Positions 1-59,135 of a DNA stretch of 64,000 bases are shown here, piece by piece. How positions within the stretch are numbered: the first letter of the stretch is position 1; the number at the start of each line of letters is the position of its first letter. The notes under the pieces are model-generated. The model saw nothing but the letters and a program-made list of their open reading frames with translations. It was not told where the DNA came from and searched no databases. The DNA is from Octopus vulgaris (lineage: Eukaryota), in contig OX597817.1 in assembly GCA_951406725.2 (NCBI GenBank), forward strand, positions 113,460,001-113,524,000, in the 5' to 3' direction. The translations under genes were made by a program, and so were the position numbers.

Positions 1-732
1 ATTCCACCTTTGACTATCTAGTCATTTATTTAGATATAGAATATCTTGGACTAAATGTTTTTCTTTTCATGCAGAACAATAGGTTATGATTTGAAGAAGA
101 TTTAGCTGCTATTTTCCCTTCATTGGAACCAAATTTATATAGGTACCACATGGTAGTATACAAAGTCTGATCAATAAATATCTGGACTGTTGCCATAGTA
201 ACGAAGCTAAAGCATGCAGAGTGAAACTTCTTGTCAAAGTTTGATCTTGAACTCTGCTGTGCATGAGCACTAAGTTTTAACATTGCAGGTCACTTCTGCT
301 GTTTACAGCAATGCTGGGAAGGAAGGTGTGTAGGGCCTGTTTGTCACATTGACCATGACAGAGAAAGTTGTCATGGCAATAGTTCTCTTTTACTTGTAAT
401 AGAATCATTATACAATTGATTAGTGGTTTCTTAGTTTACAACATTGAAGCTTGACTCTTTTTTTGTAGACATAGAGAGAGCAATAAGAAACTATTCCAGT
501 GTGTTATTTATTCCCTTGGAGCACTACAAGAAGACAGTGTTCAATAGTGTCACAAAGTTAGAGGACTAACTATTACCATTGTTGTGTCTGTTGATTTATG
601 GATATTTTAATAATATCCATATTTAATAATGAGATTTTTAACTAAAAAACTGTCTGGTGGTTATCATGTAAAACAGTAAAACACAAAAGTATTAATTATG
701 TATTACATGAAGATTCTTTATCACTATTTCAG

Positions 733-801
733 GCTTGTCTAATGCTGTCACTTGAAAGTGTTTATACTCCGGCTCACCAGTTGGCGCTAGATATGATGAA
801 G
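733..801 (+). CDS. RMC1: RMC1 (C18orf8/Mic1, regulator of MON1-CCZ1) internal coding exon; upstream exons lie outside the window
   Basis: ag|...|gtaag bounded 69-nt exon encoding ACLMLSLESVYTPAHQLALDMMK, matching the recalled RMC1 C-terminal Mic1 region (ACLLLSLESFYPPAHQLSLDMLK). Confidence 0.9.
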
Positions 802-1427
802 GTAAGAATTCTGACTGGATATTCATTCGCATTTTCTTTGATGTGTCTACACACACATGTGTATAAGTATTGCTGCATTCACTATATCCAGCTTTAGCGT
901 CATCTCTAATCATTTGTCATTCTCCTTTCACACCGTTATGAAATTACCCACTCTTTCCTTTCTTCTTGATTCACTGCCTCTATACTCCCTTATACTTACC
1001 TTCATGTACCTTGAAAGTGGCACCCTGTCACCACCATCTTTATCTCTCTTCAGCTACTCTCACCCCACTTTATAATGTGGATTAGCCATGTATCTCCTCT
1101 ATAGCAAAGCACTTCTACTTGTCACTATATCATATTTTAGCCTTCAATACCTGGCATAAAGCCACCTCCCTTTTTCCTAAATACACTCCACTCAGTTGAG
1201 GGGGCTTTTTCTTTTCCTTTGTTTTCTTTCTCTTGCAATTTGCTTGGCAAACTCATTAGTGCAAGTGTTACAAAAATAAACACCCATTACACATGGTAAA
1301 ATGGATGACATCCAGCCATAGAAACCATTCCAAAGCAGACACTAAGACCAGACATAGTTCATTGGATCTTGTCAAACCGTCAACATGAAATATTGAGATT
1401 TAATGATGATGGTGATGATGTATATAT

Positions 1428-1804
1428 ACTCTTTTACTTGTTTCGGTCATTTGACTGCGGCCATGCTGGAGCATATCGACCCCTAGACTTATTCTTTGTA
1501 AGCCCAGTACTTATGCTGTCGGTCTATTTTGCTGAACCGCTAAGTGACGGCGACGTAAACACACCAGCATCGGTTGTCAAGCAATGGTAGGGGGACAAAC
1601 ACAGACACACAAACATACACACACATATATATACATATATACGACGGGCTTCTTTCAGTTTCTGTCTACCAAATCCACTCACAAGGCTTTGGTCGGCCCA
1701 ATGCTATAGTAGAAGACAATTGATCAAGATGCCACGCAGTGGGACTGAACCCGGAACCATGTGGTTGGTAAGCAAGCTACTTACCACACAGCCACTCCTG
1801 CGCC
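1428..1804 (-). mobile_element. tRNA-derived SINE, near full length
   Basis: Reverse complement begins GGCGCAGGAGTGGCTGTGTGGTAAG (A box), then GGTTCAGTCCC (B box), with an internal (TA)n/(TG)n tract; related copies at 18566, 40885 and 41940. Confidence 0.85.
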
Positions 1805-2454
1805 TATATATATATATATATATGTATATGTAAGAAATGAAAAAAGGAAAATACGCACACTTACATAGTTTTAATATAATTTTTAATATATCGACCCGTT
1901 TAGCTATCGCTTTTCATGATATCATGTTTTACTTATTTGAATATATATTTTTTCTTTAGAAGAAATTTTGTTCATGTATTGTGTGATGAAATTCACTTGT
2001 GAATGACTTCACAAGTAGATAAATAAAGGGAGGTAATTGGTTGCCGTTATTATTTAATTGTTGTGGGTAAGGGTGATAACTGTTCAGCTTTCGGTAATGG
2101 GAGGGGAATATATGTGTACAGACAGAGACAAGGTTCAAAAACCTTGTTTAGTGAGGGGATTTATGTACAGTGATGTAATCGTGAATTGAAATATGTAAAA
2201 AGATAAAAGTAAGTTATGTGTGCATTTTAAGACGTGTTTTGTATTTCTCAATGTGTGCACTGCCCTCTATCTTGCTATAAGCCTTTGTTTTATGTTAACA
2301 TAGTGCAATATACTGTTCCCTTGAAGAACTGTTGTATATCTGCATCCAAATGCACTATTAACACCTAATGCAGAAAATATAAAATATAAATAGCCACAAT
2401 GGTGAAACATATGTAGAGAACAAATGGTATAACCTGCATGTCTTATTTTTCATC

Positions 2455-2670
2455 ATCATTATCATTTAATGTCCATTGTCCATGCTGGAATTGGTTGGAT
2501 GGTTCGACCTGGGCTGATAAGCTGAGGGGCTGCACCAGACTTCAGTCTGATTTGGCATGGTTTCTATGGCTGGATGCCCTTCCAAACACCAACCACTTTG
2601 AGAGCGTAATGAGTGCTTTTACATGCCATCAGCACGGGTGCTAGTTGCATGACACCAGTATCTGCCACAA
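2455..2670. repeat. Dispersed repeat (LINE 3'-end or SINE-like family)
   Basis: Motif tttaatgtcc..ccatgctgg..ggatgcccttcc..accaacc recurs at ~18117, 20505, 41755, 49585 and 51850. Confidence 0.6.
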
Positions 2671-3049
2671 CTATGATTTCAATATATATGATTTTCATAA
2701 ATATATATATAAATGGGATGGTAGCTCTATGCTACCATCCCATTTATATTCTGATCCCCATTCCTTGTGAGTATGCCCTGGCACTTCACCACTATCTCTC
2801 TCGCTCTTTGTATTGCTCTCTCCTTCTGACTGGGTAACCATATATCTCCTTTACAACAACACACCCATTTCTCTCCTCGGTTTTAATAGCTCACTCTGAC
2901 CAGGTAACTATGCATCTCCTCTACAGCAAGACATCTGTTTTTGTCTCTCTCAGACTCTAACCTTTCATCACCTCCAATGCCCCCTCCCCTCTAAAAGAAT
3001 CTTTGTCTTACAAAGAAACTGAAACTGAAAGAAGCCCATCGTATATATG

Positions 3050-3095
<46 letters not shown>

Positions 3096-3459
3096 AAATG
3101 AGATAGGGGTTGAAAATTCAACCCACCATGGGATAATATATATCCAATATACTGCTAGATAGGTACCCAACAAAAATAATACATAGATGTTAAAAATTGT
3201 CAAGCAATCAGTTCATCTATTGTATTAAATGGGTAAAGGTAATAATATTACCGTAAATTAATACTACAAAATTAGAGAATGGAGAAACATACTTAAATCA
3301 GTAAAACATCAACTATCCGATGATACTCAATCCATACTTTAATACACCATTACATATGAGTAAAGGCAATATATAAAATGAAATGAGATATACAGTAATA
3401 GTAAAAGTAAAAAGATAAAGAGATATAAGTAAAAAATTTCAAATATAATATGCAAATAA

Positions 3460-3580
3460 ATCAAAACTGACAGCTGTTTCGGCAGTGAGGACAGTCATAC
3501 CTCATTTAACCTATAAGCCATAAAGGCAGGTATAAATGAGGCATTAACAAGGATGCCCCACGGCCTCTTCAGAGAATTAA
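3460..3580 (-). ncRNA. Hammerhead ribozyme (type I, long stem II), copy 1
   Basis: Reverse complement of the motif at 9611-9730. Confidence 0.8.
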
Positions 3581-3906
3581 ATTAAATTTGTTATAATAGT
3601 GAAAAATATTATATAATCATATACATATAAATATAAAAATGTAAAATATAAAAACTTATACATCATAATGCTACACTTATATAATATAATACACATTTGT
3701 ACAAAAAGGAAGGTAAACAGAACAATATAAAACAAAATATATAACAGTGTATATATTAATATTAATAAGTACCGATATTATACATATTTGGCTAATAGTT
3801 TTTTTTAATAAAAAGAGGGCTAACACATATGGAGATGAAAAATAATAATTAAATCCGTGGTACAGTTCATAAAATTCTAAAGCTATAAAAGTTAATAAAA
3901 ATTACT

Positions 3907-3950
<44 letters not shown>

Positions 3951-5696
3951 TAATAATAATAAAAAAATACTAAAAATAGATACCATTAAGTTAGCACCAA
4001 GTCCATCCTTTCAAGATCGAAATAACTATGAGTTAAGAAATGCTGACCACTAGGTAAAGAAAATTTAGATTAATTCGATTGGCTATTGGTTTGAAATTTA
4101 AATCACAAAAGAAAATTATACGGTTGGTTAGTCAAGGAACGCCAATATTCACACACGCATCTACAGATCAATCGCACATACACACATAGTTATATGTATA
4201 TACATACACTTATACACATACATATTAACAAGTAACAACCAGCACTTAGATAAACAAAAAAGGGAAGCAACTATGCTAACATTTAGTCCTTCAAAATTAT
4301 AACTGAGCCTTAATAACAGAAAAAGAACCATCCATGCATTCTATAAAATATTTAATTTAGATATAAATATATTTTTAAATATCAGTATGTTACTAATTCA
4401 GATAATTATTTCATGGGTAACTTAAAATTTATAACACCGGTTTGTTACAGAGTAAACATACGGTTGTTAGGTTTATCGTAAGTTTGTTATGATTTTAAGT
4501 ACGCTAAATTATAAAATATAAAATATAAAATATATATTAATTTAAATATTATAAATAAGTCACTTATTAACTTAATAAAAATAGTGCCATAATATACCAG
4601 TTTAGGCATTAAAGAATAGAAGGGGAAGTATTAATGTAAACGCTTATGAGAACATCACAGAAATTTTAAATAAATTTTATATTATAAAGACTTAAGATGA
4701 AAAGAGATAAAATAAATAAGAAGGAATAAATACGAAGGAATAAATACGGTTGTACACATAATTATAAGTACAAACTAGTATATATGTATTCATATATTAT
4801 TAAAATTAAATACAAATAAATGATAGATATGTATGTATAAAACTACACCAGTATAAGTAAATAAGTAAAAAATAAATAGGTAACAAATTAGATGACTTGA
4901 TATGTATGTAAACATCTACACTTAAATAGGCAAATAAATAAATGAATAGAGGACTAGATGCAAAGATTGATAATATTACAATAAAATGGGAAATAAATAA
5001 AAATAAATAAAGTGAATATATATATTTTATATATATTTTATATTGTTGAAAGTAAAAATGTATGGAAGGATAGTTTAAAGTACAGATCCAGAGGACTATA
5101 GATATAAACTAAATATATGAGGCTGGTAATAATTATAAAGCAAAATGCATGTAAATGAGAAAATGAAAAAAGAAAAATGAAAAAGGTTTATCAGTGAATA
5201 GCATAAGATACAAATTAAGGTGAGTACAAAAAGACCAAATATATAATAAAAACCTTCCAAATAAACACATACAAAAAACCTATAATCTCAACCTAAACCC
5301 ACCAAACTCATAAAAGGCTCTCATATATTACATATTATACAATATCATTACATTATCTAGAGCTAGGTATCTAACCAAGATATACATATATACTATGCAA
5401 TATACTATGCAATATTGGAAAACTTCAAAAATCACACATTACAAGGCAAATACCAAAATGAATATGCTATTTTATGTCATATTGCGTTTCTCTTAAAAAA
5501 ACAAACAAAAACCCACATACAAAAATCAAGGAACCAATAATACTAGACACATCCATTAATTATTATACAAATGTAGCTATAAAAATTATAAAATTATGAA
5601 ATTTATAAATTGTATACTTTAGAATTATAGAGGACCACAGGTATATTTAGTTAAAGAAGGGAATTAAAAAATTAATAATAGTGGAAGTGCTAAGTT

Positions 5697-7492
5697 CTAT
5701 TTGAATCTAGAAAAGGTGAACGGTAGCCTATGAATACAAAAGAAGTTTTTCTCATTAATGTTGTTAATAATTTGCCGACCCGCTTTAATAATGAAGAAAA
5801 TTTCATTAATACATAGAGAGCATTTTTTATTTTTTCCATTATACACAGGTGCTGAAGTTAGTATTTTCCAGTTTAATCTAAAATCTAAGTTCTTACTTTT
5901 AAGTTCCCAAATGTATGCACTTAGCCCTGTAGAGTACATTCTATTTTTATTCCTAAAAGTATATCTGTGATAATTCCATCTTTGTTTTATGCTATTCATA
6001 GTTGCACCGATATACACCCTACTACTCAATTGTGTATCTACAGTGCATTGGTAAACTACCTCCTTCCTGAGGCATTGATTACCAAATACACATTTATTTT
6101 TATTTCTGCAATTACAAAGATTAACAGAATGAGGAAATCTAAGATTGGACACCACCCCTATACTACTATTCACATTATAAGTGTTACAATTGTTATCATC
6201 ATCCAAACCCAAAATCAACGAATGAGTTAATTTCACATTATCGGCTATATTTCTATCACTAGTACTAGTATTGGTAGTAGTAGTATGATCTATTACATTT
6301 ATATTATCTCTGACAGGTATGGTGTACTCATTATTAGTAAGGAGGTTGTTCCCATTTGTTCCAAGAAAATTTCTATTCCTATTATTAATGAAGAGGGGCA
6401 AGTTATCCTGGTCTAAATTCAATTTTCTATCCTTATAGAAGTGATCCAGTTTCTTGTTATTAAAAGAGGAGATAATGGTGGCTAGATTATGAGTAATGCT
6501 ATATCCCACTCTAACAGTACCGTTGTTAATTAAAGGACTAAATTTATTCATATCCTTACCAAAATGCCTAAAAATAACATTATGCAAAGCTCTCACTATG
6601 TTTGTTTTAATCTGCATTGCATACGGGATAATCAACCAAAGAGTATCCTTATCAGAATTAGGATTGCCTATAGAATTAATGTTATTTGTGAAAATCCTAT
6701 TCGTAGACCAACTCATAGGATTACTATTCTTACCACTGTTATTATTATATCTATCTATATCAATATTACCATGGTTATTGCGCAAGTAAACTTTACCATT
6801 ATCATGTCTACCATAAGTTTTAATTCGTATATTATTATTAATATTACTACTATTACCCGTATGCTTAGATCTATTTGAGCTACCATTCACCTTTCCAAGG
6901 TTAACGTCACTTCCACATTTATTATAGGTGTTATCATATATTCTATTTTTACTATTCTTATGTATATTGTTGATTATCCTAAATCTATTTGTGTTGTTCC
7001 TGATAGTTCTACCTCCATTAGGGGGTTCCCCTTAGGTATAAACCAAATCTTACTTTTATATCCTGCCTTAAGTAATGCTGCATTGTATCTATCACAGTGT
7101 TTGTTAAAAATTTCCTCGTTTGAGGATAAACTAGAAATTCTCTGACTAATGCTACGCACTAGTGCATTTTTAATTTGGGGGGGTGATTACTAGAACGGTT
7201 AATGTATATTAGGTTAGAATTAGGTTTAATATAGGGTTCATGTAAACCATTAGTAATGTTACAATTAACATCTAAATAATTAGCAGAATAATTTTCACTT
7301 TCAATGATAATGGATAGGCCGAAGCTTTTAAAAAATTTATTTATTCTTTTTTTCAGAAGATCTAATCTCCTATTTGATGTATTCCTAACACAAAATAAGG
7401 CGTCATCCCTGTATAATCCACCTTTTAATTCAGGGAATTCCCTACTAAAGTTATCTAATAGATACATCCCAACTAGATCAGTCACCTCCGCT
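5697..7492 (-). pseudogene. 5'-truncated inverted copy of the Penelope-like ORF (RT C-terminal half + GIY-YIG)
   Basis: ORFs 7159-7485, 6974-7159 and 5697-6890 translate identically to the + strand ORFs at 11293-13081. Confidence 0.93.
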
Positions 7493-9232
7493 TTCCACTA
7501 TTATTAATTTTTTAATTCCCTTCTTTAACTAAATATACCTGTGGTCCTCTATAATTCTAAAGTATACAATTTATAAATTTCATAATTTTATAATTTTTAT
7601 AGCTACATTTGTATAATAATTAATGGATGTGTCTAGTATTATTGGTTCCTTGATTTTTGTATGTGGGTTTTTGTTTGTTTTTTTAAGAGAAACGCAATAT
7701 GACATAAAATAGCATATTCATTTTGGTATTTGCCTTGTAATGTGTGATTTTTGAAGTTTTCCAATATTGCATAGTATATTGCATAGTATATATGTATATC
7801 TTGGTTAGATACCTAGCTCTAGATAATGTAATGATATTGTATAATATGTAATATATGAGAGCCTTTTGTGAGTTTGGTGGGTTTAGGTTGAGATTATAGG
7901 TTTTTTTTTGTATGTGTTTATTTGGAAGGTTTTTATTATATATTTGGTCTTTTTGTACTCACCTTAATTTGTATCTTATGCTATTCACTGATAAACCTTT
8001 TTCATTTTTCTTTTTTTCATTTTCTCATTTACATGCATTTTGCTTTATAATTATTACCAGCCTCATATATTTAGTTTATATCTATAGTCCTCTGGATCTG
8101 TACTTTAAACTATCCTTCCATACATTTTTACTTTCAACAATATAAAATATATATAAAATATATATATTCACTTTATTTATTTTTATTTATTTCCCATTTT
8201 ATTGTAATATTATCAATCTTTGCATCTAGTCCTCTATTCATTTATTTATTTGCCTATTTAAGTGTAGATGTTTACATACATATCAAGTCATCTAATTTGT
8301 TACCTATTTATTTTTTACTTATTTACTTATACTGGTGTAGTTTTATACATACATATCTATCATTTATTTGTATTTAATTTTAATAATATATGAATACATA
8401 TATACTAGTTTGTACTTATAATTATGTGTACAACCGTATTTATTCCTTCGTATTTATTCCTTCTTATTTATTTTATCTCTTTTCATCTTAAGTCTTTATA
8501 ATATAAAATTTATTTAAAATTTCTGTGATGTTCTCATAAGCGTTTACATTAATACTTCCCCTTCTATTCTTTAATGCCTAAACTGGTATATTATGGCACT
8601 ATTTTTATTAAGTTAATAAGTGACTTATTTATAATATTTAAATTAATATATATTTTATATTTTATATTTTATAATTTAGCGTACTTAAAATCATAACAAA
8701 CTTACGATAAACCTAACAACCGTATGTTTACTCTGTAACAAACCGGTGTTATAAATTTTAAGTTACCCATGAAATAATTATCTGAATTAGTAACATACTG
8801 ATATTTAAAAATATATTTATATCTAAATTAAATATTTTATAGAATGCATGGATGGTTCTTTTTCTGTTATTAAGGCTCAGTTATAATTTTGAAGGACTAA
8901 ATGTTAGCATAGTTGCTTCCCTTTTTTGTTTATCTAAGTGCTGGTTGTTACTTGTTAATATGTATGTGTATAAGTGTATGTATATACATATAACTATGTG
9001 TGTATGTGCGATTGATCTGTAGATGCGTGTGTGAATATTGGCGTTCCTTGACTAACCAACCGTATAATTTTCTTTTGTGATTTAAATTTCAAACCAATAG
9101 CCAATCGAATTAATCTAAATTTTCTTTACCTAGTGGTCAGCATTTCTTAACTCATAGTTATTTCGATCTTGAAAGGATGGACTTGGTGCTAACTTAATGG
9201 TATCTATTTTTAGTATTTTTTTATTATTATTA

Positions 9233-9276
<44 letters not shown>

Positions 9277-9610
9277 AGTAATTTTTATTAACTTTTATAG
9301 CTTTAGAATTTTATGAACTGTACCACGGATTTAATTATTATTTTTCATCTCCATATGTGTTAGCCCTCTTTTTATTAAAAAAAACTATTAGCCAAATATG
9401 TATAATATCGGTACTTATTAATATTAATATATACACTGTTATATATTTTGTTTTATATTGTTCTGTTTACCTTCCTTTTTGTACAAATGTGTATTATATT
9501 ATATAAGTGTAGCATTATGATGTATAAGTTTTTATATTTTACATTTTTATATTTTTATATTTATATGTATATGATTATATAATATTTTTCACTATTATAA
9601 CAAATTTAAT

Positions 9611-9730
9611 TTAATTCTCTGAAGAGGCCGTGGGGCATCCTTGTTAATGCCTCATTTATACCTGCCTTTATGGCTTATAGGTTAAATGAGGTATGACTGT
9701 CCTCACTGCCGAAACAGCTGTCAGTTTTGA
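9611..9730 (+). ncRNA. Hammerhead ribozyme (type I, long stem II), copy 2
   Basis: ct-CTGAAGA-GGC[~80-nt hairpin]GCC-GAAAC-AGCT-GTC^ag: intact core, palindromic stem III ACAGCTGT, predicted cleavage after 9722. Confidence 0.85.
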
Positions 9731-10240
9731 TTTATTTGCATATTATATTTGAAATTTTTTACTTATATCTCTTTATCTTTTTACTTTTACTATTACTGTA
9801 TATCTCATTTCATTTTATATATTGCCTTTACTCATATGTAATGGTGTATTAAAGTATGGATTGAGTATCATCGGATAGTTGATGTTTTACTGATTTAAGT
9901 ATGTTTCTCCATTCTCTAATTTTGTAGTATTAATTTACGGTAATATTATTACCTTTACCCATTTAATACAATAGATGAACTGATTGCTTGACAATTTTTA
10001 ACATCTATGTATTATTTTTGTTGGGTACCTATCTAGCAGTATATTGGATATATATTATCCCATGGTGGGTTGAATTTTCAACCCCTATCTCATTTTATAA
10101 CCTAAATTTATCTTTTGAGGAACCTGAATTGCTCATATTGGTGTAATATAAGCATCCATTTATTGATTTAAATATTAATAGTGCATGTGAATACACCCTA
10201 GTGTAGTATATTTGTTCCTTTGATCATTACTGCTAGAAGA

Positions 10241-13081
10241 ATGGAGAAAATACTGATCAATTCATCAATGAAGGATGTACCTATCCCTACCAAAGACCAT
10301 TACACTAAAGAACTAATTTATAGAATGAATGAATTCATCCATAGGATCAGATGGAGGATTTTCCACCATGAGAACTATAATAATAAAATAAACCAACAAC
10401 ACACTGGGGAAACGATCCGTAATGGAATTGGAAGCACCTATGAAGAAATATTAAAACTAACAGGCACTACATTTAAATCTAGAAAGTCTCCTCCACCAAA
10501 TATACATCTAGACAATTTTGAACAAGAACTATGGGAGACTGTAAAAACATAAAATTTAGAAATCATCCTTTAAGATATAACCCGCACCAAAGAGAATTGA
10601 AAGACTTAATTAGAACTCTCAAAGGTAAGAGCGGCATTCTAACACATTCTGACAAAACCAACAACATCTACAACATGGACATTACTGCATATCATGATCT
10701 TCTACACAAGGAAATAACCAAGAAATACAAAGTAGTACCTTCTAGTACACTTAGAAAACTGAACCTGGAGATCAGAGAAATCATATTTGACTACTACCTA
10801 GAAGAAAAAACGGAACCCTACACCCCATCCAGACCGAGAATTACACTAAAGGATCATAAAGAGAATTTTCTTGGAAACACACAGGTCAGATTAATTTGCC
10901 CCACTAAATCTGACTTAGGCAGACTAAGTAAACTCATTCTGGATAAATATCTACCCACCATCCGCAATAAAATCAAACTAAACCTTTGGAAGAATACTCA
11001 GGGTGCTTTGGATTGGTTTTCTACCATTAAGGTCTGTGACAGTAACAACTTTAGCTATAATAGAAATAAATTTATACAATTCGATATACAGAATTATTAC
11101 ACTTCAATTAACCCTATTATATTAAATAAGTCCTTAATTTTTGCTAGAAAACACACTAAACTAAGTATGGGGGAGATTAAGGTTATACTAACAGCCAGGA
11201 AAACTTTAATAGAGTTTGATAATAAACTTTGGGCTAGAAAGGACACACCCAACTTGTTCGATATCACAATGGGATCGCCGGACTCAGCGGAGGTGACTGA
11301 TCTAGTTGGGATGTATCTATTAGATAACTTTAGTAGGGAATTCCCTGAATTAAAAGGTGGATTATACAGGGATGACGCCTTATTTTGTGTTAGGAATACA
11401 TCAAATAGGAGATTAGATCTTCTGAAAAAAAGAATAAATAAATTTTTTAAAAGCTTCGGCCTATCCATTATCATTGAAAGTGAAAATTATTCTGCTAATT
11501 ATTTAGATGTTAATTGTAACATTACTAATGGTTTACATGAACCCTATATTAAACCTAATTCTAACCTAATATACATTAACCGTTCTAGTAATCACCCCCC
11601 CAAATTAAAAATGCACTAGTGCGTAGCATTAGTCAGAGAATTTCTAGTTTATCCTCAAACGAGGAAATTTTTAACAAACACTGTGATAGATACAATGCAG
11701 CATTACTTAAGGCAGGATATAAAAGTAAGATTTGGTTTATACCTAAGGGGAACCCCCTAATGGAGGTAGAACTATCAGGAACAACACAAATAGATTTAGG
11801 ATAATCAACAATATACATAAGAATAGTAAAAATAGAATATATGATAACACCTATAATAAATGTGGAAGTGACGTTAACCTTGGAAAGGTGAATGGTAGCT
11901 CAAATAGATCTAAGCATACGGGTAATAGTAGTAATATTAATAATAATATACGAATTAAAACTTATGGTAGACATGATAATGGTAAAGTTTACTTGCGCAA
12001 TAACCATGGTAATATTGATATAGATAGATATAATAATAACAGTGGTAAGAATAGTAATCCTATGAGTTGGTCTACGAATAGGATTTTCACAAATAACATT
12101 AATTCTATAGGCAATCCTAATTCTGATAAGGATACTCTTTGGTTGATTATCCCGTATGCAATGCAGATTAAAACAAACATAGTGAGAGCTTTGCATAATG
12201 TTATTTTTAGGCATTTTGGTAAGGATATGAATAAATTTAGTCCTTTAATTAACAACGGTACTGTTAGAGTGGGATATAGCATTACTCATAATCTAGCCAC
12301 CATTATCTCCTCTTTTAATAACAAGAAACTGGATCACTTCTATAAGGATAGAAAATTGAATTTAGACCAGGATAACTTGCCCCTCTTCATTAATAATAGG
12401 AATAGAAATTTTCTTGGAACAAATGGGAACAACCTCCTTACTAATAATGAGTACACCATACCTGTCAGAGATAATATAAATGTAATAGATCATACTACTA
12501 CTACCAATACTAGTACTAGTGATAGAAATATAGCCGATAATGTGAAATTAACTCATTCGTTGATTTTGGGTTTGGATGATGATAACAATTGTAACACTTA
12601 TAATGTGAATAGTAGTATAGGGGTGGTGTCCAATCTTAGATTTCCTCATTCTGTTAATCTTTGTAATTGCAGAAATAAAAATAAATGTGTATTTGGTAAT
12701 CAATGCCTCAGGAAGGAGGTAGTTTACCAATGCACTGTAGATACACAATTGAGTAGTAGGGTGTATATCGGTGCAACTATGAATAGCATAAAACAAAGAT
12801 GGAATTATCACAGATATACTTTTAGGAATAAAAATAGAATGTACTCTACAGGGCTAAGTGCATACATTTGGGAACTTAAAAGTAAGAACTTAGATTTTAG
12901 ATTAAACTGGAAAATACTAACTTCAGCACCTGTGTATAATGGAAAAAATAAAAAATGCTCTCTATGTATTAATGAAATTTTCTTCATTATTAAAGCGGGT
13001 CGGCAAATTATTAACAACATTAATGAGAAAAACTTCTTTTGTATTCATAGGCTACCGTTCACCTTTTCTAGATTCAAATAG
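10241..13081 (+). pseudogene. Penelope-like RT/GIY-YIG polyprotein, ~947 aa if three -1 frameshifts are repaired
   Basis: N-terminal SMKDVPIP..RIRWR, SDKT, QFDIQNYY, TMGSPDSAE, LYRDD, YLDV, SNHPP; Cys knuckle CNCxxxxxCxxxxxC; VVY..YIG, R..H, CxxC..E, C-x-H. Split at homopolymers 10543-10547, 11595-11601 and 11747-11757. Confidence 0.92.
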
Positions 13082-15164
13082 AACTTAGCACTTCCACTAT
13101 TATTAATTTTTTAATTCCCTTCTTTAACTAAATATACCTGTGGTCCTCTATAATTCTAAAGTATACAATTTATAAATTTCATAATTTTATAATTTTTATA
13201 GCTACATTTGTATAATAATTAATGGATGTGTCTAGTATTATTGGTTCCTTGATTTTTGTATGTGGGTTTTTGTTTGTTTTTTTAAGAGAAACGCAATATG
13301 ACATAAAATAGCATATTCATTTTGGTATTTGCCTTGTAATGTGTGATTTTTGAAGTTTTCCAATATTGCATAGTATATATGTATATCTTGGTTAGATACC
13401 TAGCTCTAGATAATGTAATGATATTGTATAATATGTAATATATGAGAGCCTTTTATGAGTTTGGTGGGTTTAGGTTGAGATTATAGGTTTTTTGTATGTG
13501 TTTATTTGGAAGGTTTTTATTATATATTTGGTCTTTTTGTACTCACCTTAATTTGTATCTTATGCTATTCACTGATAAACCTTTTTCATTTTTTCATTTT
13601 CTCATTTACATGCATTTTGCTTTATAATTATTACCAGCCTCATATATTTAGTTTATATCTATAGTCCTCTGGATCTGTACTTTAAACTATCCTTCCATAC
13701 ATTTTTACTTTCAACAATATAAAATATATATAAAATATATATATTCACTTTATTTATTTTTATTTATTTCCCATTTTATTGTAATATTATCAATCTTTGC
13801 ATCTAGTCCTCTATTCATTTATTTATTTGCCTATTTAAGTGTAGATGTTTACATACATATCAAGTCATCTAATTTGTTACCTATTTATTTTTTACTTATT
13901 TACTTATACTGGTGTAGTTTTATACATACATATCTATCATTTATTTGTATTTAATTTTAATAATATATGAATACATATATACTAGTTTGTACTTATAATT
14001 ATGTGTACAACCGTATTTATTCCTTCGTATTTATTCCTTCTTATTTATTTTATCTCTTTTCATCTTAAGTCTTTATAATATAAAATTTATTTAAAATTTC
14101 TGTGATGTTCTCATAAGCGTTTACATTAATACTTCCCCTTCTATTCTTTAATGCCTAAACTGGTATATTATGGCACTATTTTTATTAAGTTAATAAGTGA
14201 CTTATTTATAATATTTAAATTAATATATATTTTATATTTTATATTTTATAATTTAGCGTACTTAAAATCATAACAAACTTACGATAAACCTAACAACCGT
14301 ATGTTTACTCTGTAACAAACCGGTGTTATAAATTTTAAGTTACCCATGAAATAATTATCTGAATTAGTAACATACTGATATTTAAAAATATATTTATATC
14401 TAAATTAAATATTTTATAGAATGCATGGATGGTTCTTTTTCTGTTATTAAGGCTCAGTTATAATTTTGAAGGACTAAATGTTAGCATAGTTGCTTCCCTT
14501 TTTTGTTTATCTAAGTGCTGGTTGTTACTTGTTAATATGTATGTGTATAAGTGTATGTATATACATATAACTATGTGTGTATGTGCGATTGATCTGTAGA
14601 TGCGTGTGTGAATATTGGCGTTCCTTGACTAACCAACCGTATAATTTTCTTTTGTGATTTAAATTTCAAACCAATAGCCAATCGAATTAATCTAAATTTT
14701 CTTTACCTAGTGGTCAGCATTTCTTAACTCATAGTTATTTCGATCTTGAAAGGATGGACTTGGTGCTAACTTAACTGTATCTATTTTTAGTATTTTTTTA
14801 TTATTATTATTTTTATTATTATTATTATTATTATTAATAGTAATTTTTATTAACTTTTATAGCTTTAGAATTTTATGAACTGTACCACGGATTTAATTAT
14901 TATTTTTCATCTCCATATGTGTTAGCCCTCTTTTTATTAAAAAAAACTATTAGCCAAATATGTATAATATCGGTACTTATTAATATTAATATATACACTG
15001 TTATATATTTTGTTTTATATTGTTCTGTTTACCTTCCTTTTTGTACAAATGTGTATTATATTATATAAGTGTAGCATTATGATGTATAAGTTTTTATATT
15101 TTACATTTTTATATTTATATGTATATGATTATATAATATTTTTCACTATTATAACAAATTTAAT

Positions 15165-15285
15165 TTAATTCTCTGAAGAGGCCGTGGGGCATCCTTGTTA
15201 ATGCCTCATTTATACCTGCCTTTATGGCTTATAGGTTAAATGAGGTATGACTGTCCTCACTGCCGAAACAGCTGTCAGTTTTGAT
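15165..15285 (+). ncRNA. Hammerhead ribozyme (type I, long stem II), copy 3
   Basis: Same motif as 9611-9730, ~200 nt before the element's 3' end. Confidence 0.82.
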
Positions 15286-15484
15286 TTATTTGCATATTAT
15301 ATTTGAAATTTTTTACTTATATCTCTTTATCTTTTTACTTTTACTATTACTGTATATCTCATTTCATTTTATATATTGCCTTTACTCATATGTAATGGTG
15401 TATTAAAGTATGGATTGAGTATCATCGGATAGTTGATGTTTTACTGATTTAAGTATGTTTCTCCATTCTCTAATTTTGTAGTAT

Positions 15485-15685
15485 ATATATATATATATAT
15501 ATATGTATATGTTTGTGTGTCTGTGTTTGTCCCCCCCAGCATCGCTTAGCAGTTCGGTGAAAGAGACCAATAGAATAAGTACTAGACTTACAAAGAATAA
15601 GTTCTGGGGTTGATTTGCTCGACTAAAGGCAGTGCTCCAACATAGTTGCAGTCAAATGACTGAAACAAGTAAAAGAGTAAAGAGT
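15485..15685 (+). mobile_element. 3' half of a SINE split by the Penelope-like insertion (5' part at 3014-3090)
   Basis: gaaactgaaagaagcccatcgtatata (3014-) and tatgtttgtgtgtctgtgtttgtcccc (15505-) are contiguous in the intact SINE at 1428-1804. Confidence 0.8.
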
Positions 15686-15843
15686 AAGATAAACTTACAT
15701 GTCTTTGTAACTGACACTGTGACATCAGACGAGTGTAAACAAATCTGTGTTGTTTTGTTATGTATTCTGCAGACAGAAATTAGTGCAATAATAATAATAA
15801 AGAAATTGAGAGTCAAATAACTTCTTTTGTTTGTTTCTTTCAG

Positions 15844-15914
15844 AGATTATCTACAGCTAATGAAGAAATCATTGAAGTTCTGCTTTCGAAACAACAATTG
15901 CTGCCAGCTCTTAG
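15844..15914 (+). CDS. RMC1: RMC1 coding exon
   Basis: tttcag|AGATTA...CTTAG|gtaag; encodes RLSTANEEIIEVLLSKQQLLPAL(R), in phase with exon 733-801 across a 15 kb intron. Confidence 0.92.
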
Positions 15915-16286
15915 GTAAGCTATGAGGATAACTGGGAATATTTTTCTGTAGTGGAATCAGTTGATCCTTCTCTAAAAATTCCTATTTTCATGCTAATATA
16001 TCGTTGGGTTGTTAGAATTATTAGAGCATTGAACAAACTGCTTTGCGATAATTAGTTACAACTCTTTATATTCTGAGTTTAAATCTCACAAAAGCCAAAT
16101 TTGCCTTTCATCCTATGTTAGACAAATACTGGGACCAATATAATTTACTGCTCCCTTCCTCCACATGTGTGACATATTATTATTGAGTGAGAGAGCAGTG
16201 CATGCCATCAAAGTGACACTGGGGTAAAATATACGAAGCCCAGCAAACCCATCTTGACGACCTGTCTGATAAAGGTACACCAGTAT

Positions 16287-16545
16287 TGGGATATACCAAT
16301 ACACACAGATAGAGAAATCAAGGCTAATAGGACAGATATTGTTGTCAGGGGCATCCAAGAAAAATATGCCTTCTAATTGACATATTAATCCCAACAGATG
16401 ACAACATATCTCTAAAAGAAATAAAGAAACTCTCAAAATACAAATGTCTGGAAATAGATATAACCTAAATGTGGAACCTGAAAACAAATAATCCCTATAA
16501 TACTTGGTGCATAAGTATGGTTAAAAATATACAGGCTGATACATA
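16287..16545 (+). mobile_element. Decayed R4/Dong-like non-LTR fragment (restriction-like endonuclease C-terminus)
   Basis: Reads WDIPIHTDREIKANRTDIVV..LIDILIPTDDNISLKEIKKLSKYK..MWNLK with frameshifts and stops. Confidence 0.65.
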
Positions 16546-16577
16546 ACTGAGTCACCACAATTACAAATATATATATA

Positions 16578-17815
16578 TTGGGTCATCCCATAAACAATGC
16601 ATTTTTTTTACACTTCTTTTATTTTTCAAAATTAAGATAAACAAAGTCCTTATTTAATCTAAAATATACTCTCCTTCATTTTCTACAATGCTCTTCCATA
16701 CTATCTGGTAGACTTGCAAGGCCCCTCTTCCAAAATTCACTTGTCCATGATAAAAAATACATACACTTCCAGTACTGTTCTGACTGCATCTACAGAATTC
16801 ATATTTTTTCTGTCCAAATGATTTCGAAGTCTGTGCAATAAATAATCAGATGGGGCAATGTCCAGTGAATATGGTGGGTGGGGCATCATTTCCCATTCAA
16901 ACTGCTCCAGCCTTTGGAATGTCATCTTTGTTGTATGTGGCTGAACATTATCTTGATGGAAGAACACTTTCCATCTGGAAACCAAAGATGGTTGTTTTTC
17001 TTCTAGCACTGACTTAAGCCACTCAAGCTGCTCGCAGTAGATCTCCTTTGTTATCATTTGGTTTTGGTTAAAAAGTTCAAAGTAGACTAAACTTTTCATA
17101 TCCCTCCAAACAGATAACAACACCTTATGTGGGTGAAGACCTTCTTTAGCCTGGGGTGCCAGTGTTTCTCCTTTCCCTACCCACTGTTTTTGGTGCTTGA
17201 CATTTTTATAGAGAACCCATTTCTCATCACCAGTCACTATTCAGGTTCATTCATGAGACATAACAACAAAGAAGAGCACACATTCACTCTCTACATATGA
17301 TTAGATTTGGAAAGTTTGTGAAGAATCCACTGACCCAATTTGCTGACTTTTCCGATGGCACGCAGGTGTCGATGAATGGTTGAATGACCAAATCCAAGCT
17401 TCTCTGCTAGTTCCTCAACAGTTATGATGGGATTTTATTCCACCAGGTTTTGAAGGACATCCTTGTCAAGCTCTACAGATCTTCCAGGACGAGGCTGATC
17501 TTCTAGGCTGTAGTTTCTGACCCAGAATTTCTGGAACCGCTGTTGACACAGGTTTACATTTATTGTCTGATCCCCATATACTGCATTAATATTCCTCACA
17601 TTTTCCGTTGCATTGTTGCCTTTATTGAACTTGTAAATCAAAATATGCTGAATATTCTCCTTTGTCATTTCCATTATAGCTTTGAAAAAATAACTGTTAA
17701 AATCGAACTGCACTCTTCAAAACTTGCACTATGAATAAGTAGAAGGTAAAATTACTACCTGCTTTTATAGCAAGTTGATGCAGGTAGTTTATCCAACTTT
17801 TAGTTCATGCAATTG
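16578..17815 (-). mobile_element. Mariner transposon relic (transposase pseudogene)
   Basis: TGDEKWVLY, HQDNVQPH and PPYSLDIAPSDY motifs plus the HTH region PRPGRS; TA-flanked terminus ttgggtcatcccataa at 16578; second TIR not evident. Confidence 0.88.
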
Positions 17816-18565
17816 TGCAAATTGTACTCAGCACTTCACCAGCTCTATCAGTCCACCATCCATGAAGAATTTGAGTGGATAAAATCAAATCTTGTGATAT
17901 ATTAGTCAATACACCAAACATCAGAGTACTATCACTACAAGTTATAATGGAATTGTTTGAGAAGAGAATTTTAGGTTAAATTGATGGGGAAATCAATGAG
18001 TAGCCAGAGTAAGGATGGGGAAATACTGCAAAGCACTTTGTCCAGCATGCTAATGATTTAGCCAGCTGACTGCCTTAATGATGATGATGATAATAAATAA
18101 TAATAATAATAATAATCGTTTAATGTCCGTTTTCCATGCTGGCATGGGTTGGACAGTTTGACTGAAAACTGGTAAGCCAGGGAGCTGCACCAGGTTCTGA
18201 TCTGATTTGGCAAGGTTTCTGCAGCTGAATGCCCTTCCTAACACCAACAATTCCAAGAGTGTAGTAGGTGTTTTTTATGTACCATTGACCTGACACCAGC
18301 CACAACTATGGTCTCACTTGACTTAAAAAGTTTACACTTTTGCAAAATATTGTGGTTTTGGATTAAATTTAGAATTTATCATCATTACTTCTACTAAGCT
18401 GATTAAATCAATTCACTCTTCCAAAATGTGTGGCTTGGTCTGTTTGTAAATCACTGTTATTTCATAAGAGAAGCACTAATGGCTTGTGTGGAATAAGTTT
18501 ATAATTTTTCAGACGATTGACTTGATCTTTTAATATGAAAAATGTTTGTACAATATTTAGATTTA

Positions 18566-18828
18566 GGCGCCAGCATGGCTATGTGGTAAGACACTTGCTT
18601 CCCAACCACATTTCCGGTTTCAATCCCACTGCATGGCTTGTTGGGCAAGTGTCTTCTATTATAGCTTTGTGAGTAGAATTGGTAGACAAACTGAAAGAAG
18701 CCTGTCACATATGTGTGTGTGTGTGTGTTTGTCTGTTCCCTACCACTGCTTGACAACCAATGTTGGTGTGTTTACATTCCTATAACTTAGCAGTTCAACA
18801 AGAGATAGAACAAATACTTGGGTTTAAA
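18566..18828 (+). mobile_element. tRNA-derived SINE
   Basis: ggcgccagcatggctatgtggtaag..ggtttcaatccc..ttgggcaagtgtcttcta; same family as 1428-1804. Confidence 0.75.
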
Positions 18829-18910
18829 AAATATTCCTTCCAATTAGACTTTTAAAGGCTGCCTCAATCATTACTAGGTTACTTCTGATGGATTATATTT
18901 TCTTTTATAG

Positions 18911-19065
18911 ATTCATTCGCAGTATTGCTATTATTGATACAGTGTCTGCTCGCAAATTCCTTGAAGCTGCTCTCAACTGCGATGACCAAATGCTTTTTTA
19001 TACAGTGTTCAAATTCTTTGAGCAGCGAAATATTCGCCTTCGAGGTTCACCAAAATTCCCATCAG
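18911..19065 (+). CDS. RMC1: RMC1 coding exon
   Basis: ttatag|...|gtatg; encodes FIRSIAIIDTVSARKFLEAALNCDDQMLFYTVFKFFEQRNIRLRGSPKFPS; phases consistent with neighbours. Confidence 0.93.
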
Positions 19066-20046
19066 GTATGTAGCAAAAAGTCAATGAACAATTTACGATA
19101 ATATTCTGATTAACATTCAAGCCTAACTTTAACATTTCTTAGTATTTTAGGCATTTGTTTTAAATCGTAGTTGAACAGTTGTCATTGATTAGAGCTTAGT
19201 AATCATTGGTACACTGCAACACTGGTGAATGAAAAAAGGGATTGTTTGTAACTTAGAATAGATACCGAGAAAGACTTAGCATATCTTTTCTAGCTGTGCT
19301 TAAAGTTGGAAATTTTAATATTAAGTGAAAAAGTTTTTTTGTTACAATGAAATCAGTAGCTTCAGCTTTGCTTGTTGCTATGGAAACAGACATTAATGTG
19401 AAATTTAGTCATGTATAATGATTTTTGATTGGCTAAAATTACCCAAAATTTGCACACTTTAAAAGCAATAAATTTAATTTGTGGCAAACAGGTATTTCTT
19501 TTTCATAATTAGTATACAAAACCAAACCTGTATGCCAAATTTAAAAGCAATTGGAATAAAACTGAAGTATAAAATATGTGATAACTGAAAGAATTTACCT
19601 TTGCTTTGAGAATATTTTCAGTTTACTGTCATTTAAAATCTTTTATATCTACATGACAAGTTTCTGCAGTTTCCATTTACCAAATTTTTTTCCTGCCATA
19701 AACTATGTAATATAACAATGGAGCTTCTCTCAACACACTGGCTCTTGTAATATTTAAACTCAGTAGGACAGCTATCTGGTAGAAATATTAGCACACAGGG
19801 CGAAATGCTTAGAAACATTAGTTCTAAAACAGGATTTTCACACTAGTAACCTACACCACAGCTCCATACAGTAATTGCTAAACTTCCCAGATTTAAATGT
19901 TTTTCCTTTTTTTCAACAATGAAGGTCATTTTGTACTGCAGCCTGCTTAATATTTACTATTGATAATTTTGGGAGAAAAGTAGTTTACTTTTTACCTACA
20001 ATCATTGTGATCAAAATCATTTAAAAGCTTCTCTTTTTTGTTTCAG

Positions 20047-52962: not shown

Positions 52963-52964
52963 CT

Positions 52965-55843: not shown

Positions 55844-56165
55844 GGCACATGTCTTAGTGGTTAGGGCATTCAGCTCATGATTGTAAGATCATGAGTTCAA
55901 TTCCCAGCAACACGTTGTGTCTTTGAGGAAGACACTTTATTTCACATTGCTCCAATCCACTCAGCTGGCAAAATTGAGTAGTACCTGTATTTCAAAGGGC
56001 CAGCCTTGTCACACTATGTGTCACGGTGAATCTCTCTGAGAACTACATTAAGGGTACACATGTCTATGAAGTGTTCAGCCACTTACATGTTAATTTCACA
56101 AGCAAGCTGTTCCGTTGATAGTATCAGCTGGGACCCTTGTCGTCATAACCAACAGAGTGCTTCTT
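55844..56165 (+). mobile_element. tRNA-derived SINE, second family
   Basis: ggcacatgtcttagtggttaggg (A box), gagttcaattccc (B box), tgtgtctttgaggaagacacttt; followed by (TGTA)n. Confidence 0.7.
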
Positions 56166-56399
56166 TACATGTATGTATGTATGTGTGTGTGTGTGTATAT
56201 GTGTGTGTATGTATGTATGTATGTATGTAGTACAAAGTAAGATAGGGGTTATGAGGGTAACCCACTATAGGATATCAGTTATCCAATATACTGCTGGTGA
56301 AGCACCCAAATACTAAATACATAAGTGCTTATAATTGCAATGCAATTAATTCATTTATTGTATTGGATGGGTGAAGGTAAAATATTTTACTGTAAATTT

Positions 56400-59135
56400 A
56401 TAATGGTTGGCATCCTTTTTGTCTCGGGAGACAATGGAGTTGCGCATAAAGTAGTCTAGTCCGGCTTTTACATTTCATGTCCTGATACATTTCCTGCTGT
56501 GGCTGTGTAGTCCTATCCTGGACAAACACTCTGGCAGGTACCGCAAATGTAGCGAAGACTGTTCCTGGCTGGTTGTAATGCCATAGTTTCTTGTTGACGT
56601 CTTTTCTTGTCTTTCCATTTCTCCTCTCTCTCTCTGTCACTCCTTTGTATTTCCTCTCCTACGGTACGTCGCCAGTCTCCACGGTTGCCGGCAACTGCCT
56701 CCCAACTGCTAATATTGATGTTGCAGGCCTTCATGTCTCTTTTGCAAACATCCTTGTAACGTAAGAGCTGTCTACCCACAGACCTAGTACCCCTAGCAAG
56801 CTCTCCATAGAGTATGTCCTTGGGGATTCTGCCATCTTTCATACGGCTAACATGCCCAAGCCATCTCATACGTCTTTGTGTGAGGAGTGCAAACATGCTT
56901 GGTATTCCTGCTTGCCTGAGGACATCTTTGTTGGGGATATGGTTCTACCATTTGATGCAGAGGATTTTCCGGAGGCAGCGCAGGTGAAAGATGTTTAGGC
57001 GACGCTCTTGGCGTGTGTATAGCGTCCAAGTCTCACTTCCATACAGTAGAGTGCTAAGTACACATGCCTGGTAGATCTTCATTTTCGTGGTCTTGGTCAG
57101 CTTATTGTTGTCCCAAGCCCATTTGGAGAGTTGGGCCATCGCAACAGCTGCCTTGCCAATGCGTATATTGAGCTCAGCATCGAGGGATAGGTTGTAGGTG
57201 ACGGTAGAGCCCAGATAGGTAAACTTCTCCACCTCTTGTAATCTATGGTCTCCAATATGTATGTTTGGGATGTCCAATGTAGCCTGACCCATGACGTTGG
57301 TCTTCTTAAGGCTGATAGCTAAGCCAAAGTCATTACATGCTTGCTCAAAACAGCCCTTTGGAGGGCTTCTTCTGTGTGTGATACCAGAGCGGCATCATCA
57401 GCAAATAGCATCTCCTTGATCAGGACGTTTCTGATTTTGGTCTTGGCATGCATGCGCGAGAGATTGAACAGTTTCCCGTCACTTCTACTGTGCAGGAACA
57501 CTCCATCATCTGATGTCTGAAAGGCATGTGAGAGTAAGAGCGAGAAGAAGATGCCAAACAATGTAGGAGCAAGGACACAACCTTGCTTTACCCCGTTTTT
57601 TATTTGGAAGGCGGCTGATGTTGAACCGTTGTGCTGTATGGTGCCTTGCATGTCATCATGGAAAGACTTGATGATCCTCAGCAGCTTTGGTGGACATCCG
57701 ATTTTTTGGAGCAGGGTGAAGAGGCCTGTTCTGCTTACCGAGTCAAAGGCCTTTGTTAGATCAATGAAGGCCATATATAATGGCATTCTCTGCTCTCTGG
57801 ACTTCTCCTGAAGTTGGCGTATGGAGAATATCATATCGATAGTTGATCTGCTTCTTCTATAGCCACATTGCGATTCTGGATAGATTCGAGAAGCAAGTAG
57901 TTGTAGCCTGGCCAGGATAACGCGGGCAAAGGTCTTTCCAACAGTGCTTAGAAGAGATATTCCACGGTAATTGTTACAATCACCACGGTCACCTTTGTTT
58001 TTGTAAAGCGTAATGATGTTAGCATCCCACATATCCTGAGGGATTGTACCCTCTTCCCAGCACTGACACAGAAGCTCATGAAGGTGCCGAAGCAGGATGG
58101 TGTTTTTGCTGGCTTTGATGATCTCTGAGGGGATGCCGTCTTTTCCCGGAGCCTTGTTTCTTGCTAGGGAGTCAACAGCCTTGATGAGCTCTGCTATAGA
58201 TGGCGGACTGTCAAGTTCGCACATGACTGGCAAGATCTTGACACTCTCAACTGCAGCCTCAGCCACTGTAGTCTCCTGTGAGTAGAGATCCTGGTAGTGC
58301 TCCACCCATCTATCCATTTGCTTGCTTTGATCCCTGATGAGATCTCCAGTAGTTGATTTCAGAGGGGTTGACTTGGTTGCGGATGGACCAAGAGCCTTCT
58401 TCAAACCGGCATACATTCCACGGGTGTCGCCCCTGTCAGAAGCTGACTGGATACTCTGACAGATTTCCTGCCAATACCTATTTGCACAGTGTCTGGCTGT
58501 CAGTTTGGTTTTATTTCGTGCCTTTCTGAGTTCTTCGAGTGACTTTGTAGAAGAGTCGCTCTTGTATTGCATCAGAGCTGCACGCTTTGCTTCGATAACT
58601 GGCTCCAGCTCTGAGAGCCCAGCAATCTGGGTTTTGCCTTTCTCTCATGCCAAAAGTATCTATTGATGTCGTATACAAAGCTTCCCTGATGTAGTTCCAC
58701 CTACTTTCAGCAGAGGAGGTTGGGCAGCCACTGAGGGCAACCTTGATAGCAGCAGCAAAACATTTTCGCAGTGTAGGGTCCGAGGTTCTGGCAGTGTTAA
58801 TGCGTGGTCGGCCCACTTTCTTGGAGCGGTGGACTTTTTTAGGTAGAATCCTCACCCTACTTCTAATTAGTGAGTGGTCTGTGTCACAATCCGCGCTCTG
58901 GTAACTGCGGGTCAATAGAGTAGAATTCAGAAAGGATCTCTGTGTAATGATGAGATCCAGCTGATGCCAGTAGTGAGATCTTGGATGTCTCCAAGATGCC
59001 TTGTGGGATGGCTTGTTGGTAAAGAATGTGTTTGTGATGCACAGGTTGTGGTATGTGCAGGATTCAAGTAGTCTCTGACCATTGTCATTCATGTTGCCAG
59101 TACCAAAGTGTCCAATACAAATGGGCCACGAATCA
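56400..59135 (-). mobile_element. RTE-clade (BovB-like) LINE, 5'-truncated within the APE domain, frameshifted
   Basis: NDNGQRLL, WRHPRS..LD, CDTDH (APE); KAPGKDG, YRGISLL, FIDLTKAFD, GVKQG, LFADD (RT); RWLGHV; 3' stem tgtctcccgagaca..ggatgcc. Confidence 0.95.

Follow-up and report, generated by a model that had tools for sequence, protein, structure and literature searches.

A probable young head-to-head insertion of a Hydra-type Penelope-like retrotransposon in the TA tract of a SINE of Octopus vulgaris

Background

On contig OX597817.1 of Octopus vulgaris (GenBank assembly GCA_951406725.2), the 64,000-nucleotide stretch from position 113,460,001 to 113,524,000, hereafter the window, contains within one intron a 12.4-kb array of Penelope-like retrotransposon sequence (positions 3091-15481 of the window). 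The two 3' ends of the array both face outward into alternating TA repeats, and a piece of a short interspersed element (SINE) lies beyond each repeat. This locus raises the question of how retrotransposition could leave two copies of an element in opposite orientations at one site, and whether the element selected the TA repeat or the SINE. Judged from its sequence, the array appears to be a young, head-to-head insertion of an element of the Hydra type. The explanation that we favour as a whole, with a probability of roughly 0.7, is that it was inserted into the TA tract of an older SINE in a single event, in which both DNA strands were cut and both served for priming. The SINE was likely a passive donor of the microsatellite and not a recognised sequence.

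Results

Layout of the array

Self-comparison and self-BLAST divided the array into four blocks (Table 1). The first is a minus-strand copy that starts within the reverse transcriptase (RT) region and reaches the full 3' end of the element; its 3' part is repeat L. It is followed on the plus strand by the upstream pseudo-long terminal repeat (pseudo-LTR, repeat M), the element body and the downstream repeat R. One unit of the element is 5599 bp, with a 3' untranslated region of about 2.6 kb. The pseudo-LTR starts 11 nt past the stop-codon position and therefore has no coding sequence. Between the minus-strand and the plus-strand copy of the body there was no difference in 1806 nt, and thus the insertion is young. 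The repeats L, M and R, leaving the tail aside, differ at seven sites, with R the odd one at three, M at three, and all three different at one. Furthermore, the body is joined to the tail in L alone, a join that neither M nor R has. Because L has none of the private changes of M and R and joins the body to the tail, it was not copied from either of the repeats on the right. At the inverted junction (7492/7493), the 5' ends of the two copies meet directly, and neither target DNA nor any overlap or palindrome lies there. By the pattern of differences L is not a fold-back copy of M or R, and the junction lacks the palindrome on which a published self-priming model relies (PMC3846280); this also speaks against a fold-back artefact.

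A first-pass annotation of this DNA had described the 3' ends of the element as pointing outward and fused to TA tracts, and the junctions bear this out: a pure alternating T/A run of 27 nt on the left (3064-3090) and of 23 nt on the right (15482-15504) directly adjoins the outer 3' end. On the right the element stops 173 nt before the full 3' end, which is found on the left. Each of the two start sites is at a TAT or TATA, and no TA has been added at the internal tandem junction (10100/10101).

The array interrupts a SINE within an intron

The same annotation had placed pieces of a SINE on both flanks of the array. We located these pieces at 3021-3041 (left) and 15510-15534 (right). Their description as contiguous in the intact SINE holds in so far as both border the same central tract of the reference copy, a 26-nt mixed TA/TG sequence, and needs the correction that this microsatellite separates them. 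The left piece was found by BLAST with an E value of 1.4e-4, and its score was reached by 37 of 20000 random 60-mers. A scan of both strands in 60-nt windows at 5-nt steps gave seven clusters with scores of at least 30, all of which were SINE copies, including the array site; the scan thus leaves SINE copies as the only source of the 37 high-scoring 60-mers.

The target SINE is not whole: it lacks its tRNA-like head and some 140 bp of its 5' half. Compared with three reference copies, no extension of the SINE was found 5' of 3018; the region 2452-2992 is part of another repeat, and no continuation of that repeat was found after 15680. The 3' half of the target SINE shares 80-85% identity with three further copies, in contrast to the absence of differences between the body copies of the element, and the SINE therefore predates the element. 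The target is an aged, 5'-truncated SINE, probably truncated before the element arrived.

The SINE belongs to a tRNA-derived family, of which the window has at least seven more copies, partial or full. A scan for box pairs with the A/B-box consensus found pairs with two mismatches at 1794 and 18576; shuffled sequences reach this level 1.8 times per window. ARAGORN predicted no tRNA, and Rfam found no tRNA in the SINE head. The target SINE may resemble the CORE-SINEs. An octopus element, OR2, is named as a CORE SINE in PMC4758252. The reference SINE has TA runs on each side (1421-1428 and 1805-1823), and short TA stretches follow the SINE copies that end near 31882 and 41282; the family itself may favour TA sites. 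At 59384-59747, a TA/TG tract is flanked by two old 3' halves of SINEs that face opposite ways.

The exons on either side of the array match consecutive positions of the RMC1 profile, so that both flanks lie within one intron, which measures 15042 bp; with the array removed, 2651 bp would be left. The splice signals of the two exons are compatible, and the host gene is likely an RMC1-like gene, as judged from these profile matches. The view that the array is a real insertion at one site is thus upheld by two agreeing observations, the SINE halves and the consecutive host exons.

Table 1. Positions in the window of the array, its target and host intron, and the older related locus
Feature	Position	Strand	Description
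Host exon upstream of array	733..801	+	RMC1_C (Regulator of MON1-CCZ1) positions 151-173; Pfam E 2e-07; GT donor at 802
Full-length tRNA-headed SINE, reference	1428..1804	-	Central mixed TA/TG tract is homologue of target; A/B-box-like pair
Left target-SINE remnant	3018..3041	+	24 bp just 5' of central tract, head absent; 22/24 identical
Left microsatellite	3042..3090	.	G-interrupted TA beside SINE, pure alternating T/A beside element
Inverted 5'-truncated copy	3091..7492	-	RT C-terminal part, linker, endonuclease, 3' region, full 173-nt tail; self-BLAST
Repeat L (in inverted copy)	3091-5686	-	Self-BLAST
Upstream pseudo-LTR, repeat M	7493..10100	+	2.6-kb repeat with tail 9928-10100; self-BLAST
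Element body	10101..13091	+	Between repeats M and R
Downstream 3' repeat R	13092..15481	+	Stops 173 nt before full end
Putative hammerhead-ribozyme core	9619..9722	+	Long stem II, palindromic stem III, weak stem I; motif scan, dimer cofold
Equivalent putative hammerhead cores	15173-15276; 3572-3469	+; -	Motif scan
Linker zinc-finger-like motif and predicted GIY-YIG endonuclease	12632..13078	+	Structural model
Right microsatellite	15482..15509	.	Pure alternating T/A, then G-interrupted
3' half of target SINE	15510..15680	+	Internal deletion of about 36 bp; 138/165 identical to reference SINE
Next host exon	15844..15914	+	RMC1_C positions 174-195; Pfam E 3.2e-05; AG acceptor before 15844
Second tRNA-headed SINE-like element	55845..56168	+	3' microsatellite holds old copy; best A/B-box pair in window
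Old related copy, 3' tail only	56231..56402	-	74% over 173 nt, E 5.8e-23; nhmmer E 6.2e-16
Old locus	56169-59311		Microsatellite, minus-strand tail, 5'-truncated RTE-type LINE (presumed) 56403-59149, AT-rich stretch, TA tract

Protein and clade of the element

The open reading frame (ORF) of the element at 10241-13081 has about 947 codons, compared with a median of 706 among 120 relatives, and is interrupted by frameshifts at three places, all of them homopolymer runs. Its four collinear pieces match single relatives of 759-803 aa. Over the RT stretch that could be matched, the Octopus sinensis protein XP_029653623.1 shows 99% identity, and its frame is continuous across the two frameshifts that both copies share; these are therefore sequencing errors or private to the donor. 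XP_029653623.1 (GATA zinc finger 14-like) and another Octopus relative, XP_052826861.1 (uncharacterised), are annotated as host proteins and are misannotated retrotransposon ORFs. Further relatives of the element occur in Argonauta; together with the Octopus sinensis match, they point to an octopus as the likely host.

Among the motifs of the element, we found an N-terminal RWR at 10349 (RW[KR] in 107 of the 120 relatives), DKT at 10651 (DKT in 110 relatives, DKG in 6) and YRDD, which all 120 relatives have; the motif GxKF/Y had no match. The linker, 21% of which is Asn, contains CxCx5C at 12662 (114/120, scored as CxCx4-6C), and its cysteines C11, C13 and C19 are invariant among 60 aligned sequences, as are E115 and N128. 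CxxC, at 12956 (110/120), and CxH, at 13040 (109/120), are placed around the conserved E and N. CCHH is absent, there being one cysteine between the two tyrosine motifs. According to a structural model (pLDDT 92), the C-terminal domain is predicted to have the GIY-YIG fold, placed after the RT in a single ORF: it was superposed on I-TevI with a Z score of 10.3 (rmsd 2.3 over 89 residues), and the matches ranked after I-TevI include T4 EndoII and UvrC. Foldseek returned nothing at E <=0.001, Pfam assigned no family to three ORF pieces and matched GIY-YIG in 4 of the 60 aligned members, and a PDB sequence search with the alignment returned one chance match (E 0.47). None of four candidates of 81-261 residues passed as a stand-alone relative of the endonuclease.

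The element carries the motif set published for the Hydra clade (PMC8557442) and, on these motifs, is assigned to it: RT followed by a C-terminal GIY-YIG, with RW[KR], DKT, YRDD, CxCx5C, CxxC and CxH and no CCHH. Read beside published Hydra sequences, its motif blocks agree with theirs. The size of Hydra elements, generally <3 kb as a typical and not an absolute trait, is exceeded by the 5599-bp unit. Membership in Naiad or Chlamys was rejected, as these have an N-terminal endonuclease and that of the element is C-terminal. Penelope/Poseidon, Neptune and Nematis were rejected as well; they have CCHH in the endonuclease and DKG, and the element has one core cysteine and DKT.

Hammerhead core and 3' tail

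The 3' region carries a putative hammerhead core. A scan for the core gave four matches, three of which fall one in each repeat on the sense strand. Each of the three repeats has the core, stem II and a palindromic stem III, and these resemble rows of File S2 of PMC8557442. Stem II is long and stable (fold z -4.5), with 85 nt between the core halves; stem I has only two clean pairs. In positions 1-20000, Rfam gave 17 weak matches, none at the gathering score, and no hammerhead. The tail region (9880-10110) folds better than shuffled sequences (z -3.4), with several hairpins, and the 173-nt tail could possibly serve as a binding site for the RT.

An older related copy and the supply of TA sites

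An old related copy, which consists of the 3' tail only, was found elsewhere in the window. It ends at the same position as the full 3' end, adjoining a decayed microsatellite (56169-56229), and begins where the young right-hand copy ends. That microsatellite is at the 3' end of a second tRNA-headed, SINE-like element, whose A/B-box pair has one mismatch (0.27 expected per shuffle). We infer that this element represents a second SINE family, with a single copy in the window. An Rfam match to Plastid-ycf2 on its reverse strand (E 0.002) is presumably an antisense tRNA-like match. The use of SINE-borne microsatellites in general gains one case, because the old copy adjoins the microsatellite of this second element. 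For the proposal of the first-pass annotation that the target SINE family itself supplies such sites genome-wide, the support from the window is weak: seven other copies of this family have alternating T/A runs of 0-11 nt, and among the 12 other TA tracts of at least five units, one lies inside a copy of the family and one adjoins such a copy. Two SINE-associated sites, in unrelated elements and at different positions within them, in a type of genome of which SINEs make up 11.6% (PMC13282606), fit a passive supply of sites.

The old tail is followed by a LINE that we take to be of the RTE type. Past this LINE, an AT-rich stretch on the plus strand bears a weak resemblance to the part of the element that immediately precedes the tail, and the old locus may be a second head-to-head insertion with the same two start sites. 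If 59150-59288 is taken as a plus-strand partner to the old tail, its end-anchored score was equalled in 14 of 1000 shuffles and ranked first among 24 TA flanks; the test was picked after looking, and the flank at 53288 scored higher unanchored (50 vs 48). The alignment of the whole unit to 59150-59288 did not beat shuffled sequences, and nhmmer missed the stretch. Taken together, the sequence is at most suggestive of such a partner. An earlier match at 59264-59331 was rejected as largely TA repeat. At the protein level, a tblastn search of the window for element remnants with seven relatives gave one weak match (E 0.011), in the region of an LTR element.

Discussion

Proposed mechanism of insertion

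We suppose that (TA)n, which is alike on both strands, would be nicked by the GIY-YIG domain, for which the CxCx5C linker may act as a guide. The right-hand end would prime at an internal site of the RNA, 173 nt from its 3' end, and copying would proceed through the 3' repeat, the body and the upstream repeat (about 8 kb). The left-hand end would prime at the genuine 3' end of another RNA molecule, with copying halted after 4.4 kb, and host repair would then join the two 5' ends. The proposal of the first-pass annotation that (TA)n is targeted is in line with the TA repeats at both ends and was already published for the Hydra clade (PMC8557442, section 11 and File S1). A linker motif has been proposed as the guide for microsatellite targeting (PMC8557442). 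The second proposal of the annotation, priming from both strands of one break, fits the junction, the allele pattern of the repeats and in vitro data on another element, and we infer it on these grounds. The Poseidon protein of Anolis carolinensis cuts DNA with a preference for AT-rich sequence and cleaves and extends both strands, and two start sites define its tail (PMC11167929).

Several points weigh against this explanation. The evidence comes from one full locus and one fragment, and the in vitro data concern a different clade and an initiation without homology (PMC11167929). The left flank is connected to the SINE by only 24 bp. Since both junctions lie within TA repeats, a target-site duplication is unreadable; the longest words shared across the array flanks are TA repeats, and further shared words (6-11 nt) do not frame the array. 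The TAT that follows 15481, 3 nt common to element and target, is unremarkable, as TAT or ATA starts 14% of repeat positions. The two frameshifts covered by both copies are common to both; possibly the donor did not code for an enzyme of its own, or these may be sequencing errors. Five of the seven differences among L, M and R are repeat-unit indels, which could be slippage or assembly noise. Finally, the seven other SINE copies in the window have alternating T/A runs of only 0-11 nt, and a simple insertion into a typical SINE copy does not explain the runs of 27 and 23 nt. Duplication of a rare long tract, later slippage or addition by the RT could each account for these long runs.

Alternative explanations

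Among other origins of the inverted arm, self-priming or fold-back on the antisense template or on the first cDNA has been proposed for head-to-head Penelope arrangements of Adineta vaga, with the palindromes at inverted junctions read as traces of self-priming (PMC3846280). The identity of the body copies agrees with such copying. We nevertheless consider it unlikely here, as there is no palindrome or overlap at 7492/7493, and L lacks the private changes of M and R and has the tail that is absent in R.

It is likewise improbable, although compatible with two-strand priming into a TA tract, that the long TA runs were partly added at integration by slippage of the RT on a UA-rich start site. 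The pure runs adjoin the element, with the interrupted SINE-like parts outward, and the short runs of the other SINE copies and the position of both start sites at TAT or TATA would suit an addition. However, a long tract duplicated by staggered cuts, or later slippage, looks alike, there is no extra TA at the tandem junction, and the 12 other TA tracts are without a detected copy of the element.

The element could also recognise the SINE sequence or its chromatin, and so prefer SINE microsatellites over other TA tracts. Where the context can be read, the ends related to the family are in both cases in SINE-associated microsatellites (2/2), and only 2 of the 12 other long TA tracts are in or adjoin the first SINE family, a count in which other SINE families were left out. 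We regard this recognition as very unlikely: there are two sites only, in unrelated SINE-like elements and at a central versus a terminal position, and the target kept just 24 bp on one side. SINEs make up 11.6% of the Octopus vulgaris genome (PMC13282606), and (TA)n is used by Hydra families in four phyla (PMC8557442). A passive role of the SINE thus remains our preferred reading.

That the flanks come from different SINE copies, through two insertions followed by recombination or deletion within the intron, is suggested by the shortness of the left piece, the lack of a duplication marking a single site and the recurrence at 3007 of an 11-nt word of the SINE 3' half. It is highly improbable in view of the two pieces being in register and in the same orientation around a homologous tract, the consecutive exons with an intron of 2651 bp minus the array, and the absence of target DNA between the 5' ends. 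Lastly, we give hardly any credence to the inverted arm as an assembly artefact (a fold-back read or a collapsed repeat), since the identical body copies, the shared frameshifts at homopolymer runs and the other palindromes in the window are outweighed by two different symmetry centres, three distinguishable repeat haplotypes, unique SINE halves and consecutive exons outside the array, and a layout that matches a published one (PMC8557442).

A more far-reaching possibility, which extends the single two-strand insertion and which we consider unlikely, is a 'long-tailed octopus Hydra branch', in which both strands of (TA)n are opened, two RNAs are copied from fixed starts 173 nt apart, and TA is lengthened in the manner of telomerase. 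SINE microsatellites would seed the first insertions, each of which would make longer targets, and another such event, with the same two start sites, would have produced the old locus at 56169-59311.

Comparison with other retrotransposons

Targeting of TA and the architecture of the element are already described for its clade, of which this locus is an ordinary but clean example. In File S1 of PMC8557442, 26 of the 27 Hydra families have (TA)n as their target, among them Hydra-1_Obim from Octopus bimaculoides, and an inverted 5'-truncated copy is recorded for Penelope-13_HM. The present element shares with the clade the (TA)n target and such an inverted copy, and has a putative hammerhead core in its 3' region. 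It differs in its unit of 5599 bp, compared with 1.1-3.0 kb in PMC8557442, and also in the length of its ORF, the Asn content of its linker and the 85 nt between the halves of the hammerhead core. Hydra-1_Obim is a different family, as both its protein and its 5' DNA differ; it was set apart by reading the sequences. The 173-nt tail, the 5.6-kb unit and a 3' region as long as about 2.6 kb set the element apart within the clade.

Penelope-like elements typically form partial tandems and inverted copies, with a tail of 30-40 bp that may be present or absent (PMC8557442). The arrangement here is that of the canonical Penelope structure (PMC8557442, section 6; PMC3846280), with the tail present at one outer end only; unlike the canonical tail of 30-40 bp, it has 173 nt. 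In the Adineta elements the pseudo-LTR is about 0.2 kb, in contrast to 2.6 kb here, and the inverted junction here has no palindrome; their linkers are likewise Asn-rich (PMC3846280). The anole Poseidon element (PMC11167929) is alike in the AT-rich target, the cleavage and extension of both strands and the two tail-defining start sites. It belongs to another clade, and its starts lie inside the ORF start, whereas those of the octopus element lie in the 3' untranslated region, with a microsatellite as target. Naiad_Obim and Naiad_Ovul share the (TA)n target in octopus but have an N-terminal endonuclease, DKA, CCHH and no canonical hammerheads (PMC8557442), and the present element is without those protein features.

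Twin priming of LINE-1 also yields two arms that meet head-to-head at a single break, their 3' ends directed outward; these arms are non-overlapping parts of one RNA. Here the arms overlap over 4.2 kb, and thus two RNAs or a multimer would be needed. Papers on twin priming and Penelope included none on this mechanism, as judged by title and start of the abstract, and by the same measure none of those listed on nested insertion in SINEs dealt with this case. We did not find a two-strand explanation of inverted Penelope copies stated; older Penelope papers may hold it. How tandem and inverted Penelope structures are built up, and the preference for microsatellites, are named as open questions in PMC8557442 (section 15). 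The locus may be a useful test case in this respect, being young and having both ends, three distinguishable repeats and a reconstructable empty site between known exons. The allele pattern separates priming on two strands from the published self-priming model, and the original length of the TA tract would decide between duplication and addition of repeats.

Other features of the window

A near-perfect 165-bp inverted repeat (96%) at 52964-53297 has TA runs at its outer ends and no homology to the element; possible readings are a brief head-to-head insertion from a different TA-targeting family and a miniature inverted-repeat transposable element (MITE). Close to it, at 52801-52874, a small hairpin has G-rich arms around a central TA run, beside a long mixed TA/TG tract. 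Long terminal inverted repeats were found at 39359-40294 and 49288-49493 (90% and 74% self-complementary), the former holding CA-rich microsatellites; both are likely non-autonomous DNA transposons. The minus strand contains a remnant of a Mariner-type transposase at 16737-17240 and an RNase H/integrase stretch of an LTR element at 61208-62848, and the exons at 24913-27336 on the same strand read like what we take to be the small subunit of ribonucleotide reductase.

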